Origin: Escherichia phage FL23
Reading direction: 5' to 3' (one strand)
DNA: 64,000 bases
Sequence record: PP400787
A program made the position numbers and the translations under genes. Shown here one piece after another: positions 1 to 9,496 of the stretch. Under the pieces are notes generated by a model. That model searched no databases and was not told the DNA's origin. It was given only the letters and a program-made list of their open reading frames with translations. The number at the start of each line of letters is the position of its first letter. Position 1 is the stretch's first letter.

Positions 1-1
1 T

Positions 2-346
2 ACTGGTTGTGTATCTCAAGGACCGGTAGTAAATCAGTCTGATGTAGGAAAAATTGTAAACTGTTCAAGCAAATTTTATAATCCTAATGTCAAGTGTTAT
101 AAAGAAGCTCCAAAACAGACAGTAGAACAAATGCAGGCGAATTTTGACGAAGCTATTCGTCCAGATGAATCTGCTCAAGCATATCGTAATTCGGATGTAA
201 TTACACGCGAAGAAAAAATTGAAAATTACTGCGCCGTGCTTTGGGCAAATTGGGCTAATAATTACCAGTTGCGTACTGGTAAAAATGCTCCAATGGAGTA
301 TGTAGTGAATTCTTATAATTCATGCGTAAAAAATTTAACTAAGTGA
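2..346 (+). CDS. 3' part of an early ORF running off the window start (imm.1-position hypothetical protein)
   Basis: Frame open from position 2 to TAA at 344-346; lies directly upstream of imm. Confidence 0.5.
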   Translation, partial: TGCVSQGPVVNQSDVGKIVNCSSKFYNPNVKCYKEAPKQTVEQMQANFDEAIRPDESAQAYRNSDVITREEKIENYCAVLWANWANNYQLRTGKNAPMEYVVNSYNSCVKNLTK

Positions 347-353
347 GGAAAAC

Positions 354-605
354 ATGGAAACTTTAGTAGCAGGTTCAATTTTTATGGTTTTAGTTTCAGG
401 CGTGTTGGCTATTATTATATACATGCTTCCATGGTTCATCGCCTTGATGCGTGGGTCAAAATCGACAGTAGGAATCTTTTTCACGTCTTTACTGTTTAAC
501 TGGTCAATTATTGGTTGGTTTATTACATTTATTTGGTCAATTGCGGGTGAAACTAAAAAGTCTGCACAGCCAAATCAAGTAATTATCATCAGAGAGAAGG
601 AATGA
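354..605 (+). CDS. imm: Imm, membrane immunity (superinfection exclusion) protein, 83 aa
   Basis: 83-aa two-helix hydrophobic protein; size, sequence and position upstream of gene 42 match T4 Imm as recalled; GAGGA RBS. Confidence 0.8.
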   Translation: METLVAGSIFMVLVSGVLAIIIYMLPWFIALMRGSKSTVGIFFTSLLFNWSIIGWFITFIWSIAGETKKSAQPNQVIIIREKE

Positions 606-751
606 AAAGCAAAATTATAGCAGTGTTGCTTTTAATCTTGATGATTATAATAAGTATATACTATAGTGTAACGGTTCCTCTTATGATTCCAACTATTATT
701 TTAGGTTGGGGTTTATTACTGTTACAAGTTAAATATGAATGTATCAATTGA
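602..751 (+). CDS. small hydrophobic membrane peptide, 49 aa
   Basis: ATG overlaps imm stop (ATGA); almost entirely hydrophobic; ends 8 nt before gene 42. Confidence 0.4.
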   Translation: MKSKIIAVLLLILMIIISIYYSVTVPLMIPTIILGWGLLLLQVKYECIN

Positions 752-758
752 GGTTTAA

Positions 759-1499
759 ATGATTAGTGACTCTATGACAGTTGAAGAAATCCGTCTTCAT
801 TTGGGGCTTGCATTAAAGGAAAAAGATTTCGTAGTTGATAAAACTGGTGTTAAAACTATTGAAATTATTGGCGCATCATTTGTAGCAGATGAACCGTTTA
901 TTTTTGGCGCTCTTAATGATGAATACATTCAGCGTGAACTTGAATGGTATAAATCTAAGAGCTTGTTTGTTAAAGATATTCCAGGTGAAACACCAAAGAT
1001 TTGGCAGCAGGTAGCATCTTCTAAAGGCGAAATTAACTCGAATTATGGTTGGGCTATCTGGTCAGAAGATAACTATGCTCAGTATGATATGTGTTTAGCT
1101 GAACTTGGTCAAAATCCTGATTCTCGACGTGGTATCATGATTTATACTCGTCCATCCATGCAATTTGACTACAATAAAGATGGTATGTCAGATTTCATGT
1201 GTACGAATACAGTACAGTACCTGATTCGTGATAAGAAAGTCAATGCAGTAGTAAGCATGCGCTCAAATGACGTGGTCTTCGGATTCCGTAATGATTATGC
1301 ATGGCAAAAATACGTATTAGATAAATTAGTATCTGATTTGAATGCAGGCGATTCAACTCGTCAGTATAAAGCAGGTTCTATTATATGGAATGTTGGAAGT
1401 CTTCATGTATATTCTCGTCATTTTTACTTGGTTGATCATTGGTGGAATACTGGCGAAACTCATATTGTGAAAAAAGATTATAACGGTGAGTGGAAATGA
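759..1499 (+). CDS. 42: dCMP hydroxymethylase (gp42), 246 aa
   Basis: Near-identical to T4 gp42 as recalled; thymidylate-synthase-like fold. Confidence 0.93.
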   Translation: MISDSMTVEEIRLHLGLALKEKDFVVDKTGVKTIEIIGASFVADEPFIFGALNDEYIQRELEWYKSKSLFVKDIPGETPKIWQQVASSKGEINSNYGWAIWSEDNYAQYDMCLAELGQNPDSRRGIMIYTRPSMQFDYNKDGMSDFMCTNTVQYLIRDKKVNAVVSMRSNDVVFGFRNDYAWQKYVLDKLVSDLNAGDSTRQYKAGSIIWNVGSLHVYSRHFYLVDHWWNTGETHIVKKDYNGEWK

Positions 1500-2338
1500 T
1501 TCAATTCGTAATTCCAAGTTATCAACGTGTAGGGGCAGTTTCTGCCCTTGATATGTTTCCGACTGATTATGAACCACATATTGTAGTACGTGAACACGAA
1601 GAAGAAGCTTATTATGATGCTTATGGGTCTAGAGCTAAAATTGTAACTATTCCTGATGATGTTAATGGAATTGCCGGTACTCGTAAAGCAATTACTGATA
1701 TGTATGCAGGTCAACGAATCTGGATGATTGACGATGATACTACTATTCGTATGAGTTCAATACGAAAGAGAGACGATAAACGGCGCGTAGATAAAATTAA
1801 TCAATTAACTCGTGAACAGTTCTATGAATTAATTCAATACGTTGAGGATGCTATGGATTGCGGGTATTATCACGGTCATGCTCGTCTACCAATTTTTAAA
1901 ATTACTTCATCTTGGGGTAATTATCGTGAAAACTCATATGGATTCACGAATACATGGTATGACCTCGGAAAACTTACGACAGAACAAATTGGGTATGGAA
2001 AAATTGATTTATGTGAAGATATGTATGCATTTCTCAATTTAATTAATCAAGGTTATCCGCATTTGGCCTTGTTCAAATATCTAGTTGTATCTGGAAAATC
2101 ACACGCTCCCGGTGGGTGTAGTTCAATTCGTAGTAATTCTAAACATAATAGAGCTCTTGAGCAAATCAATAGAGAGTTTCCAGAGCAAGCTCGTTGGAAA
2201 ACATCGAATATTGAAAAACGAAAATCGTTGGGTGAAGAAGACGAGCCATTAAAGGTTCTTCGCATGTGTGTTTCGCGTAAAGAAAAATCAGAAGCATTTC
2301 ATAAGTTTAATGCTATTCATCCAATAGCAGTTGATTAA
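1496..2338 (+). CDS. DNA glycosyltransferase occupying the beta-gt locus (GT-A-like, DxD motif; candidate beta-glucosyl-HMC-alpha-glucosyltransferase type), 280 aa
   Basis: ATG overlaps gene 42 stop (ATGA); WMIDDDTT DxD-type motif; unrelated to T4 beta-gt (351 aa) but in the same slot between 42 and uvsX. Confidence 0.6.
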   Translation: MIQFVIPSYQRVGAVSALDMFPTDYEPHIVVREHEEEAYYDAYGSRAKIVTIPDDVNGIAGTRKAITDMYAGQRIWMIDDDTTIRMSSIRKRDDKRRVDKINQLTREQFYELIQYVEDAMDCGYYHGHARLPIFKITSSWGNYRENSYGFTNTWYDLGKLTTEQIGYGKIDLCEDMYAFLNLINQGYPHLALFKYLVVSGKSHAPGGCSSIRSNSKHNRALEQINREFPEQARWKTSNIEKRKSLGEEDEPLKVLRMCVSRKEKSEAFHKFNAIHPIAVD

Positions 2339-2415
2339 TGCCTAAATTTATTGTGTTATAATTACTTTATCTTTAACCAGTGAGGAAAATATAATGATGC
2401 CTATGGAAAAAATGA

Positions 2416-3597
2416 ATGTCTATTGCAGATTTAAAATCCCGTTTGATTAAAGCTTCCACTTCTAAAATGACTGCTGAACTGACTACATCTAAATTCTTTA
2501 ATGAAAAGGATGTAATCCGTACAAAAATCCCAATGCTTAATATCGCTATTTCCGGCGCGATTGATGGTGGTATGCAGTCTGGTTTAACCATTTTTGCAGG
2601 TCCTTCTAAACACTTTAAATCAAATATGTCTTTGACTATGGTTGCGGCGTATTTGAACAAATATCCTGACGCGGTTTGTCTATTTTATGATAGTGAATTT
2701 GGTATTACTCCAGCTTATTTGCGATCCATGGGAGTTGACCCTGAACGAGTAATTCATACGCCAATTCAGTCAGTTGAACAACTGAAAATTGATATGGTGA
2801 ATCAGCTTGAAGCTATTGAGCGCGGTGAAAAGGTTATTGTATTCATCGACTCAATCGGTAATATGGCTTCTAAGAAAGAAACGGAAGATGCCTTGAATGA
2901 AAAATCTGTGGCAGATATGACTCGTGCTAAATCACTGAAGTCATTATTCCGTATTGTTACTCCTTATTTTAGTATTAAAAACATTCCATGCGTTGCGGTT
3001 AACCATACAATTGAAACAATTGAAATGTTTAGTAAAACCGTGATGACAGGCGGTACAGGCGTAATGTATTCGGCTGATACTGTATTCATTATCGGTAAAC
3101 GTCAGATTAAAGATGGTTCTGATCTTCAGGGGTATCAATTTGTTCTAAATGTAGAAAAATCTCGTACCGTTAAAGAAAAAAGTAAATTCTTTATTGATGT
3201 TAAATTTGACGGTGGTATCGATCCTTATTCTGGATTGTTAGATATGGCTCTTGAATTAGGATTTGTAGTAAAACCTAAAAATGGTTGGTATGCTCGTGAA
3301 TTTCTTGACGAAGAAACTGGCGAGATGATTCGCGAAGAAAAATCTTGGCGTGCAAAAGATACCAATTGCACTACATTCTGGGGTCCTTTATTTAAGCATC
3401 AGCCATTCCGAGATGCTATTAAACGCGCTTATCAGTTAGGTGCTATTGATAGTAATGAAATTGTTGAAGCTGAAGTCGACGAATTGATTAACTCAAAGGT
3501 TGAAAAATTTAAATCTCCAGAAAGTAAAAGTAAATCAGCTGCTGATTTAGAAACTGACCTAGATCAGTTAAGTGATATGGAAGAATTTAATGAATAA
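2416..3597 (+). CDS. uvsX: UvsX RecA-like recombinase, 393 aa
   Basis: Near-identical to T4 UvsX as recalled; Walker A GPSKHFKS. Confidence 0.95.
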   Translation: MSIADLKSRLIKASTSKMTAELTTSKFFNEKDVIRTKIPMLNIAISGAIDGGMQSGLTIFAGPSKHFKSNMSLTMVAAYLNKYPDAVCLFYDSEFGITPAYLRSMGVDPERVIHTPIQSVEQLKIDMVNQLEAIERGEKVIVFIDSIGNMASKKETEDALNEKSVADMTRAKSLKSLFRIVTPYFSIKNIPCVAVNHTIETIEMFSKTVMTGGTGVMYSADTVFIIGKRQIKDGSDLQGYQFVLNVEKSRTVKEKSKFFIDVKFDGGIDPYSGLLDMALELGFVVKPKNGWYAREFLDEETGEMIREEKSWRAKDTNCTTFWGPLFKHQPFRDAIKRAYQLGAIDSNEIVEAEVDELINSKVEKFKSPESKSKSAADLETDLDQLSDMEEFNE

Positions 3598-3934
3598 AGA
3601 TGATTTGGATTTAGATCTAGAAATTATCGACGAATCCCCCTCTTCGGAGGGGGAAGAAGAAAGAAAAGAACGTCTTTTTAATGAATCTCTTAAGATAATT
3701 AAATCTGCCATGGAAAATGTTATCCAGGAGATTGTCATTAAACTAGAAGACGGTTCTACACACATTGTGTATGTGACAAAATTAGATTGGGTTGATGGAA
3801 AAGTCGTAATGGACTTTGCTGTTCTTGACCAAGAAAGAAAAGCTGAGTTAGCTCCTCATGTAGAAAAATGTATTACAATGCAACTACAAGATGCATTTAA
3901 TAAAAGGTCAAAGAAAAAATTTAAATTCTTTTAA
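3590..3934 (+). CDS. 40: gp40 head vertex assembly chaperone (alternative start 3572)
   Basis: Position between uvsX and 41; ATG at 3590 overlaps the uvsX stop; acidic N-terminus. Confidence 0.6.
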   Translation: MNKDDLDLDLEIIDESPSSEGEEERKERLFNESLKIIKSAMENVIQEIVIKLEDGSTHIVYVTKLDWVDGKVVMDFAVLDQERKAELAPHVEKCITMQLQDAFNKRSKKKFKFF

Positions 3935-3943
3935 GGAGTAAGT

Positions 3944-5371
3944 GTGGTAGAAATTATTCTTTCTCATCTCATATTTGATCAAGCTTATTTTTCAAAAGTT
4001 TGGCCATATATGGATTCAGAATATTTTGAAAGTGGTCCAGCTAAAAATACATTCAAATTAATTAAATCTCATGTTAACGAGTACCATAGCGTTCCATCTA
4101 TTAATGCGTTAAATGTTGCGTTAGAAAATAGTTCATTTACTGAAACAGAATATTCTGGTGTAAAAACACTTATTTCAAAACTGGCCGATTCTCCGGAAGA
4201 CCATAGCTGGTTAGTAAAAGAAACAGAAAAATATGTTCAGCAAAGGGCGATGTTTAACGCCACATCTAAAATAATCGAAATTCAAACTAATGCTGAGCTT
4301 CCTCCGGAAAAACGAAATAAGAAAATGCCAGATGTAGGTGCTATTCCTGATATCATGCGTCAAGCATTATCAATTTCATTTGATAGCTACGTTGGTCATG
4401 ATTGGATGGATGACTACGAAGCACGCTGGCTATCTTATATGAATAAAGCTCGTAAGATTCCATTTAAACTCAGAATTCTAAACAAAATTACTAAAGGCGG
4501 AGCTGAGACTGGAACACTGAACGTTTTAATGGCTGGCGTTAACGTTGGTAAGTCATTAGGATTGTGTTCATTGGCAGCAGATTATTTGCAGCTCGGACAT
4601 AATGTTCTTTACATTTCTATGGAAATGGCAGAAGAAGTCTGTGCTAAACGTATTGATGCTAATATGCTTGATGTTTCTCTTGATGACATTGATGACGGGC
4701 ATATTTCTTACGCTGAGTATAAAGGAAAAATGGAAAAATGGCGCGAGAAATCTACTCTCGGTCGTTTAATCGTTAAGCAATATCCTACTGGTGGAGCAGA
4801 CGCTAATACATTTCGATCGCTTTTAAACGAATTGAAGCTCAAGAAGAATTTTGTTCCAACAATCATTATTGTCGACTATCTAGGTATTTGTAAATCTTGC
4901 CGCATCAGAGTTTACTCAGAAAATAGTTACACAACTGTTAAAGCCATCGCAGAAGAATTGCGTGCTCTGGCTGTTGAAACCGAAACTGTTCTTTGGACTG
5001 CAGCACAGGTTGGTAAACAAGCTTGGGACTCTTCCGATGTTAACATGAGCGATATTGCAGAATCTGCCGGTCTTCCAGCAACAGCTGATTTTATGCTTGC
5101 GGTCATTGAAACCGAGGAGCTAGCAGCTGCTGAACAACAACTCATTAAGCAAATCAAATCACGATACGGTGATAAGAATAAGTGGAATAAGTTTTTGATG
5201 GGTGTTCAAAAAGGAAATCAAAAATGGGTAGAAATTGAACAAGATTCTACTCCAACTGAAGTGAGTGAGGTAGCAGGTTCACAACAGATACAAGCTGAGC
5301 AGAATCGCTATCAAAGAAATGAATCCACTCGAGCTCAGTTAGATGCTTTGGCAAATGAATTAAAATTTTAG
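3944..5371 (+). CDS. 41: gp41 replicative DNA helicase (DnaB family), 475 aa
   Basis: Near-identical to T4 gp41 as recalled; GTG start 5 nt after AAGGAG; Walker A GVNVGKS. Confidence 0.93.
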   Translation: MVEIILSHLIFDQAYFSKVWPYMDSEYFESGPAKNTFKLIKSHVNEYHSVPSINALNVALENSSFTETEYSGVKTLISKLADSPEDHSWLVKETEKYVQQRAMFNATSKIIEIQTNAELPPEKRNKKMPDVGAIPDIMRQALSISFDSYVGHDWMDDYEARWLSYMNKARKIPFKLRILNKITKGGAETGTLNVLMAGVNVGKSLGLCSLAADYLQLGHNVLYISMEMAEEVCAKRIDANMLDVSLDDIDDGHISYAEYKGKMEKWREKSTLGRLIVKQYPTGGADANTFRSLLNELKLKKNFVPTIIIVDYLGICKSCRIRVYSENSYTTVKAIAEELRALAVETETVLWTAAQVGKQAWDSSDVNMSDIAESAGLPATADFMLAVIETEELAAAEQQLIKQIKSRYGDKNKWNKFLMGVQKGNQKWVEIEQDSTPTEVSEVAGSQQIQAEQNRYQRNESTRAQLDALANELKF

Positions 5372-6225: not shown

Positions 6226-6851
6226 TGCTTTATCAAATGCACAAGTGTAAAGACACGTACAAATATAAAGGTGCCCAGTGTTATATCATTAATCGTGAAA
6301 ACGCAGGTCCAGGTCATTCGCATCAATCACGGTTTGTATTCGTTAAAAATAATGAAATTATAGCAGTTGCCAATTATATGCTTGTGACCAATGATGTTAA
6401 TCCGGTGCCTTTCACATATGACAATCTAATGGACTTGGCATATGATTATAATTGGTTTAATCATGACAATTTAGTTCATATTGAAGGTGTAGGATTTGAC
6501 ATCTCTTATTCTAGTTATTCGTTGTGCCCTATGAGCCGAGCTCATAAAGAGCCTGAATATTTTTCATTTCGTCGGCGTGTAGACTTTAAACGCAGCACAG
6601 AGTATGTCGGTGGAATCTTTGTTAAAGATAATCGAATTACTCGCATTATTTATCCTTTGGGCTGTGGTCAAAAAGATATTGATGTTGATTTAGACTTTAC
6701 TGAAAACATCATTAATCATATTGCTTCTGTGTATTTTGATATTGATCACAAAATTGTAATATGTGGATATGAATTACCATCAGAAAAACAGTCTAAAGTA
6801 AATGTTTCTATTGATGACCAAATTTTTAATGCTTTTATGAATAGAGGTTAA
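6225..6851 (+). CDS. hypothetical protein (61.2 position), 208 aa
   Basis: ORF with ATGA overlap to sp; conserved position. Confidence 0.6.
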   Translation: MLYQMHKCKDTYKYKGAQCYIINRENAGPGHSHQSRFVFVKNNEIIAVANYMLVTNDVNPVPFTYDNLMDLAYDYNWFNHDNLVHIEGVGFDISYSSYSLCPMSRAHKEPEYFSFRRRVDFKRSTEYVGGIFVKDNRITRIIYPLGCGQKDIDVDLDFTENIINHIASVYFDIDHKIVICGYELPSEKQSKVNVSIDDQIFNAFMNRG

Positions 6852-8316: not shown

Positions 8317-8832
8317 ATGGCTTACTTTAATGAATGTTCACAACTGATTGAAGGCGCTGATAAAGCTCAAAATGAATACTGGGATATTCTCGGTGATGAA
8401 AAAGACCCGCTGCAGGTTATGCTTGATATGCAGAAATCTTTACAGGTTCGTTTAGCAAATGACCGCGAATACTGTTATCATCCAGATAAATTAGAAACTG
8501 CCGGTGATGTTGTTTCTTGGATGCGTGAACAAAAAGACTGTATTGATGATGAATTCCGCGAACTTCTGACTTCTCTTGGTGAAATGTCACGTGGTGAAAA
8601 AGATGCATCGGCAGTTTGGAAAAAATGGAAAGCACGTTATATTGAAGCGCAAGAAAAACGCATTGATGAAATGTCCCCAGAAGATCAGCTCGAAATTAAA
8701 TTTGAGCTTGTGGATATATTTCATTTCGTATTAAATATGTTTGCTGGCCTTGGAATGAATGCGGAAGAAATCTTTAAACTTTATTATTTGAAAAATAAAC
8801 ATAATTTTGAACGTCAAGATAATGGGTATTAA
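8317..8832 (+). CDS. 56: gp56 dCTPase/dUTPase, 171 aa
   Basis: From ATG 8317 (MAYFNECSQLIEG...) matches T4 gp56 as recalled; the track ORF start at 8224 is upstream out-of-context extension. Confidence 0.9.
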   Translation: MAYFNECSQLIEGADKAQNEYWDILGDEKDPLQVMLDMQKSLQVRLANDREYCYHPDKLETAGDVVSWMREQKDCIDDEFRELLTSLGEMSRGEKDASAVWKKWKARYIEAQEKRIDEMSPEDQLEIKFELVDIFHFVLNMFAGLGMNAEEIFKLYYLKNKHNFERQDNGY

Positions 8833-9496
8833 ACAAAAATTTTATAGAACATATATCGTAAAAGTTAGGACGCCGAAAGGCGTCTTTTGGTACGCTGGGA
8901 AACATGAATCATTTATTGTAAATCCATATGATGATAAATATCCGGGGTCAGGCAAAATACTATGGAACATATATCGTAAGTATGGTTTTAATTATAAAAT
9001 ACGTTGGTCAAAATGCCATGGTTCTAGAGAAAAATCATATGAAGTTGAACGCGAGCTAATATCTGCATTAAAACGTAAACACCCAGATACTTGCATTAAT
9101 ATTTCTCCTGGTGGTCAGGGTGGAGAAGGAAGAAAATGGACTGAGCAACAACGATTAGAACATAAACTTAGATTAAACAATCCTGAAACAAAAACTCGGA
9201 TGAAGAATTCACAACGTATAGCCCAAAATAGAGCAGAACGAAAAGCTCGGCAATCTGAAGTAATGAAAAAGTTTTATTCGAATGGCGGAAATAAAAAGAT
9301 TTCAGAAGGAACTTCAAGGGCGCAAAGAAAAGCGCCGCATTGGAATGAACCGCTTAAAAGCGAAATACATGAGTTATGGGTTTCTTTAGGTAAACCAGCA
9401 ACAGGCCCGGTTGTAAAGGCGCTTAAAGGAAAATATGATGTAACAAGTTCAGCTCTTAAGAATTTAATTTACTTATTCAGAAAAGAAGATGTATAA
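8822..9496 (+). CDS. segF: GIY-YIG homing endonuclease (SegF/gp69-like)
   Basis: GIY-YIG-like N-terminus (YRTYIVK...FWYAGKH); basic C-terminal DNA-binding region; position between 56 and soc. Confidence 0.6.
   Translation: MGIKQKFYRTYIVKVRTPKGVFWYAGKHESFIVNPYDDKYPGSGKILWNIYRKYGFNYKIRWSKCHGSREKSYEVERELISALKRKHPDTCINISPGGQGGEGRKWTEQQRLEHKLRLNNPETKTRMKNSQRIAQNRAERKARQSEVMKKFYSNGGNKKISEGTSRAQRKAPHWNEPLKSEIHELWVSLGKPATGPVVKALKGKYDVTSSALKNLIYLFRKEDV

Follow-up and report, generated by a model that had tools for sequence, protein, structure and literature searches.

The 280-aa protein encoded at positions 1496-2338 of the analysed Escherichia phage FL23 DNA is, with a probability of about 93%, a beta-glucosyl-HMC-alpha-glucosyltransferase of the T2/T6 type (ba-gt, also called ggt or TAGT). 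By comparison with its relatives, it would transfer a second, beta-1,6-linked glucose onto alpha-glucosyl-hmC and so produce gentiobiosyl-hmC. The stretch we analysed covers 64,000 nt of one strand of FL23 (PP400787), and "the window" refers to this whole stretch. Identity, family, locus, predicted fold class and conserved residues of ba-gt were established here, while the chemistry and the phenotypes of T6 deletions come from the literature. The gene is already known and sits in its usual place, and the initial annotation identified it correctly.

Identity of the gene between gene 42 and uvsX

The ba-gt open reading frame (1496-2338, +) is intact and runs from the ATG at 1496 to the TAA at 2336-2338. 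A mechanical ORF listing had placed the start at the GTG at 1490, which would give 282 aa. We rejected this start since every homologue begins with MIQF, and this sets the start at the ATG at 1496.

On its left lies gene 42 (759-1499, +), the dCMP hydroxymethylase of hmC precursor synthesis, which matches Pfam Thymidylat_synt (E 1.1e-15) and is annotated as gene 42 at the same position in T4, T2 and T6. Its final five codons are unlike those of T4. The gene 42 stop codon and the ba-gt start codon overlap in an ATGA (1496-1499, +) that can be read directly from the sequence. Annotations of FL44, T2, T6, EL, Geo and BGP show the identical 4-nt overlap, and translational coupling of the two genes is probable. 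The right-hand neighbour is the 393-aa uvsX recombinase (2416-3597, +; Pfam T4_UVSX_C, E 4.7e-39, and RecA, E 2.4e-11), followed by ORFs of 120 and 475 aa at the position of T4 genes 40 and 41. The slot between gene 42 and uvsX is the one that ba-gt holds in T2 and T6.

Farther upstream of gene 42 we found imm (354-605). Between imm and gene 42 there is a hydrophobic ORF of 49 aa (602-751, +), whose ATG overlaps the imm stop codon. It is annotated as hypothetical in FL44, has no Pfam match and has no annotated counterpart at this place in the T4 record. The same early region carries an anti-defence gene, encoding a 204-aa protein (6237-6851, +) that matches Pfam PF23813, AdfA (anti-DarT factor A), with an E value of 8.7e-134. 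A scan of window positions 1-4000 for promoters and terminators gave 16 and 2 hits, compared with 16.7 and 1.9 expected from shuffled sequence. One terminator-like hairpin (1530-1550) falls within the ba-gt coding sequence and was taken as a chance occurrence.

The initial annotation had suggested, from size and position, that the protein fits the T2/T6 enzyme, and the alignments bear this out. Over all 280 residues it shares 96.4% identity with the T2 protein (AP018813) and 95.7% with the T6 protein (AP018814), both encoded in the same locus. The copy of Escherichia phage FL44 is 100% identical. The proteins of EL, Geo and BGP, which are identical to one another, agree with it at 279 of 280 positions, and K37E is the sole difference. 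The family assignment is consistent with this: residues 3-207 align with positions 2-205 of the 205-position Pfam profile PF20691 (TAGT, TET-associated glycosyltransferase) at 39.7 bits (gathering cut-off 27.5), and PHROG 842 "beta-glucosyl-HMC-alpha-glucosyltransferase" is matched with an E value of 3.6e-88. A search of NCBIfam with the protein gave no match.

The protein also proved to be a different glycosyltransferase from the one T4 carries in this slot, as had been claimed. The motif WMIDDDTT, noted as typical of GT-A enzymes, is found at residues 76-83. Could it nevertheless be a strongly diverged T4-type beta-glucosyltransferase (GT63, PF09198), a GT-B enzyme mono-glucosylating hmC in beta linkage? 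Only its position, the slot of T4 beta-gt, speaks for this. BLASTP against T4 beta-gt revealed no similarity (best E 4.1), Pfam gave no beta-gt match up to an E value of 1, and the predicted fold is of the GT-A and not of the GT-B type (see also PMC13216743). Furthermore, the protein has 280 aa and T4 beta-gt has 351 aa, a length that the initial annotation had given correctly, and homology to T4 breaks off exactly at the edges of the cassette. The chance that we are dealing with a diverged beta-gt is practically negligible, and the initial statement that the protein bears no resemblance to T4 beta-gt holds. T4 alpha-gt (GT72, PF11440) showed no similarity to the protein either, with a best BLASTP E value of 0.95 and no match in Pfam.

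Predicted fold and conserved residues

Searches of PDB sequences returned nothing significant, neither with the single protein (best E 1.6) nor with a 10-sequence profile (best E 0.23). Since there is no relative with a solved structure, the fold was taken from a model. Pfam Glycos_transf_2 did not match ba-gt up to an E value of 1, and the homology search for the alignment yielded 11 clusters only. The AlphaFold2 model built from the 10-sequence alignment is of moderate quality (pTM 0.71, mean pLDDT 68.9). Residues 1-80 reach block means of 83-95, while the loops 126-151 and 195-211 lie below 50.

The only structural matches of the model are GT-A/GT2-type folds. In the model, a single Rossmann-like nucleotide-sugar-binding domain carries an acidic DxD after strand 4. 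By its predicted fold, ba-gt is a GT-A, GT2-like enzyme and so probably inverting and metal-dependent. An inverting GT2-like mechanism would fit the formation of a beta-1,6 bond from UDP-alpha-glucose.

Three conserved sites stand out. The IPSYQR motif (aa 6-11; 1511-1528, +) follows strand 1 and resembles the nucleotide-binding start of GT2 enzymes. I6, P7, S8, Y9 and R11 are invariant in our family alignment (A2), the motif is matched by IPTYNR in 9jma, a GT2 enzyme, and the strand (E3-7 in the model) belongs to the blocks with pLDDT of 83-95. The second site is DDD (D79-D81; 1730-1738, +), a DxD-type, putative metal- and UDP-sugar-binding motif after predicted strand 4 (aa 74-77). It is invariant in the alignment, down to a relative of 28% identity, and in the profile search it aligned with DDDD of the solved structure of 9jma, which supports the earlier guess of a GT-A enzyme with a DxD motif. 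The third site is E174-D175 in "CEDMY" (2015-2020, +), at the start of the model helix 174-184, where D175 is invariant and E174 nearly so. This pair may be the counterpart of the ED/TED motif of GT2 enzymes. By analogy, DDD would hold the UDP-sugar and the metal, and D175 would likely serve as the catalytic base expected in an inverting enzyme of the GT-A type, but these roles are not firm because the model is only moderate, with a mean pLDDT of 68.9 and two loops below 50.

Distribution of the gene among phages

Megablast with the 843 nt of the gene retrieved 478 phage records, 474 of them with at least 80% query coverage, and the match to FL44 is 100%. Nearly all are isolates of Tequatrovirus, from Escherichia, Shigella, Yersinia, Salmonella and Citrobacter, and beta-glucosyl-HMC-alpha-glucosyltransferase is the annotation in many of them. 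On the protein level, tblastn found 688 phage records (684 at 80% coverage or more), so ba-gt is no chance ORF. Homologues of 60-80% identity adjoin gene 42 in about 200 more records, from phages of Klebsiella, Enterobacter, Salmonella and Cronobacter. For DNA of T4-type beta-gt the count was 29 phage records, most of them T4 stocks, compared with the 478 for ba-gt.

The published surveys give the same picture. Twelve of 14 T4-like RB phages have alpha-gt together with ba-gt (PMC6024577), and alpha-GT and beta-GT occur together in only 6 of 753 glucosyltransferase-encoding genomes (PMC13216743). The combination of alpha-gt and ba-gt is the usual state in Tequatrovirus, and the alpha-gt and beta-gt pair of T4 is the rarity. 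The ba-gt of the window is a textbook gene carried by most Tequatrovirus genomes, and its presence as such matters little here.

Boundaries of the exchanged segment and a ba-gt stub in T4

We compared the window with T4 by blastn. A segment of 946 nt (1482-2427, +) has no T4 homology except for an island of 25 nt. The left flank is homologous up to 1481 (92%), where gene 42 has five codons left, and homology resumes at 2428 (94.6%), just inside uvsX. In T4, the counterpart of this segment measures about 1.9 kb and contains beta-gt, a short hydrophobic mini-ORF and segA.

The 25-nt island (2316-2340, +) consists of the final 20 nt that code for ba-gt, the TAA and 2 nt beyond it, and is identical at 24 of 25 positions to T4 NC_000866 24262-24238. 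In T4 this ba-gt stub immediately precedes the start codon of segA. In eight phages, including ESh36, PD112 and Manna, the gene order is ba-gt, segA, uvsX, and these match T4 by 97-99.7% from exactly the island onward. Because of the stub and of these eight phages, it looks as if the beta-gt of T4 had secondarily replaced the ba-gt of an ancestor with the order ba-gt, segA, uvsX. A recent NAR paper on the T4 glucosyltransferases mentions neither segA nor a remnant.

Relation to FL44 and the partner alpha-gt

The outcome of ba-gt activity depends on alpha-gt, because its acceptor is alpha-glucosyl-hmC. In the 64-kb window we detected neither an alpha-gt nor a beta-gt homologue (tblastn E above 2; alpha-gt best E 5.2). 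Positions 1-20279 of the window are 100% identical to FL44, and positions 20299-64000 (43.7 kb) are 99.39% identical, with 254 mismatches and 8 gaps. To judge from this alignment, FL23 is either a sibling of FL44 or a mosaic of it. Aligned to the FL44 record, the window would span the point at which that record begins. In the FL44 genome, genes 47 and 55 flank an alpha-gt that is 91% identical to that of T4 and lies some 10 kb upstream of where the window begins. From FL44 we infer that alpha-gt is present in the FL23 genome as well.

A 224-aa ORF (8822-9496, +) overlaps the end of the dCTPase gene and is annotated as "homing endonuclease" in FL44. It was our candidate when we looked for a Dam-like gene as a co-determinant of the modification pattern of EL, Geo and BGP, which is described below. 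The ORF had no Pfam match up to an E value of 0.01, and we rejected it as a Dam methylase. With this one candidate ORF scanned and no Dam-like match found, the background of FL23 may differ from that of EL, Geo and BGP.

Predicted modification of FL23 DNA

The classical chemistry of phage hmC glucosylation has been summarised (PMC6024577). In the pathway we propose, gene 42 and the dCTPase would supply hmdCTP, which replaces C in the phage DNA. An alpha-glucosyltransferase of the phage, whose gene lies outside the window, would then place an alpha-linked glucose on most hmC. Finally, ba-gt would use host UDP-glucose as the donor and attach a second glucose by a beta-1,6 bond to the first one, giving gentiobiosyl-hmC. 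Any hmC skipped by alpha-gt would stay bare because there is no beta-gt. The resulting DNA would be a mixture of hmC, alpha-glucosyl-hmC and gentiobiosyl-hmC without beta-glucosyl-hmC.

Chemical data from close relatives agree with this proposal. HPLC/MS of EL, Geo and BGP DNA gave 5-hmdC, alpha-glucosyl-mdC and alpha-gentiobiosyl-mdC at about 1:2:2 (PMC13390438). The beta-glucosyl form was not detected in these Durham phages, and the authors assigned the second glucose to the TAGT gene (PMC13390438). In T6, deletion of ba-gt left only alpha-glucosyl-hmC, and the DNA became a substrate of Brig1 and the phage more sensitive to it (PMC11078745). In addition, DNA of T6 delta-g-gt releases glucose under BapA, whereas wild-type DNA does not (bioRxiv 10.64898/2026.02.25.707755). 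The initial annotation had expected a sugar decoration, and with it a restriction sensitivity, unlike those of T4. The EL, Geo and BGP DNA (PMC13390438) and the T6 deletion (PMC11078745) speak in favour of this, by way of relatives of FL23.

The same data bear on whether this TAGT family member has another specificity, so that its acceptor (bare hmC or beta-glucosyl-hmC) or its sugar donor would differ from that of the T2/T6 enzyme. Specificity does vary in the family, as TAGT homologues elsewhere are paired with a beta-GT or stand alone (PMC13216743, PMC6024577), and the FL23 allele has the private substitution K37E. However, a protein identical at 279 of 280 residues occurs in EL, Geo and BGP, whose DNA contains only the hmC, alpha-glucosyl and gentiobiosyl forms. 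All invariant residues of the family are retained, and the partner gene in FL44 is an alpha-gt. A changed specificity is thus very unlikely.

If FL23 ba-gt acts as the T2/T6-type enzyme, the predicted composition, namely gentiobiosyl-hmC and alpha-glucosyl-hmC with some bare hmC and no beta-glucosyl-hmC, would affect which host defences see the DNA. Brig1 acts on alpha-glucosyl-hmC, and gentiobiosyl-rich T6 DNA is not degraded by it. Bare hmC is the target of Brig3, gentiobiose is beyond trimming by BapA, and GmrSD-type enzymes cut all forms. The sugar pattern also bears on which laboratory restriction enzymes cut the DNA.

Alleles of ba-gt and lesions in laboratory phages

The fraction of di-glucosylated hmC cannot be read from the gene, because gentiobiosylation amounts to 5% in T2 and 72% in T6 though the two proteins are nearly identical. 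We compared eight aligned sequences, which fall into two groups. The first allele (window, EL, Geo, BGP and ESh36) has V50, I89, K95, R97, I101, S202 and H203. The second (EH2, T2 and T6) has I, M, R, C, V, A and Q at positions 50, 89, 95, 97, 101, 202 and 203. Among the eight, K37E is private to the window, together with FL44. In the model, five allele sites (89, 95, 97, 101 and 202/203) are placed in two low-confidence loops beside DDD and the invariant GG. About two thirds of the cytosines in EH2 DNA are gentiobiosylated, with little alpha-glucosyl-hmC, and in EL, Geo and BGP DNA only about 40% are gentiobiosylated.

The T2 protein differs from that of EH2 only by R11H and P251S, and both T2 records (AP018813 and MH751506) have these changes. 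In the family alignment R11 is invariant and P251 nearly so, which suggests that the T2 enzyme is weakened by R11H/P251S. These two substitutions could explain the low gentiobiosylation (5%) of T2. The T6 records carry lesions of their own. In MH550421, codon 10 is TAG (amber) and the coding sequence is annotated from M20, and AP018814 has lost one Asp codon of DDD in frame. We considered the DD variant of T6 as a sign that two aspartates suffice, but did not adopt this reading, since the other T6 record has DDD plus the amber codon. Either T6 record may come from a mutated laboratory stock.

Such lesions make one ask whether ba-gt of FL23 is itself an inactive or dispensable, decaying copy, which would leave the DNA alpha-mono-glucosylated only. 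Precedents are the T6 laboratory stocks, hit at codon 10 and in DDD, and T2, with a change at the invariant R11 and only about 5% gentiobiosylation. The FL23 gene, however, is of full length and every invariant or near-invariant residue of the alignment, R11, DDD, D175, G206, G207 and P251, is intact. Moreover, a protein identity of 96-100% is maintained in hundreds of field isolates. We consider a decaying copy extremely improbable, and an active T2/T6-type enzyme remains our reading of the gene.

A more far-reaching idea is that the allele determines what share of the alpha-glucosyl-hmC is converted, so that phages tune the ratio of mono- to di-glucosyl forms via ba-gt. FL23 would then have the "partial" setting, and R11H would explain the 5% of T2. 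We find this tentative and rather doubtful. If true, the ratio set by the allele would govern how far the phage is exposed to Brig1, BapA/Brig3, GmrSD and similar defences.

Comparison with known systems

Cellular inverting GT-A enzymes of GT2 (BcsA, TarP 6H1J, RmlT and AvpGT 9JMA) are only 6-18% identical to ba-gt. They differ from it in that the acceptor of ba-gt is a sugar on DNA and that the C-terminus of ba-gt is extended by a basic stretch of about 70 aa.

T4 beta-gt (GT63, PDB 1JG7) resembles ba-gt in its genomic slot, in its use of UDP-glucose, in acting on phage hmC DNA and in the beta linkage it forms. It differs in having no sequence similarity, in its GT-B instead of GT-A fold, in its acceptor, which is bare hmC and not alpha-glucosyl-hmC, and in its length (351 versus 280 aa).

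The likeness to T2 and T6 ba-gt extends to the locus, the length, the ATGA overlap with gene 42 and the alpha-gt partner found in the closest genome, FL44. Unlike T2, FL23 ba-gt has kept R11 and P251, and unlike the T6 records it has no amber codon and a full DDD. The closest relatives with chemically analysed DNA are the TAGT proteins of the Durham-collection phages EL, Geo and BGP, which share the seven-residue allele with the window.
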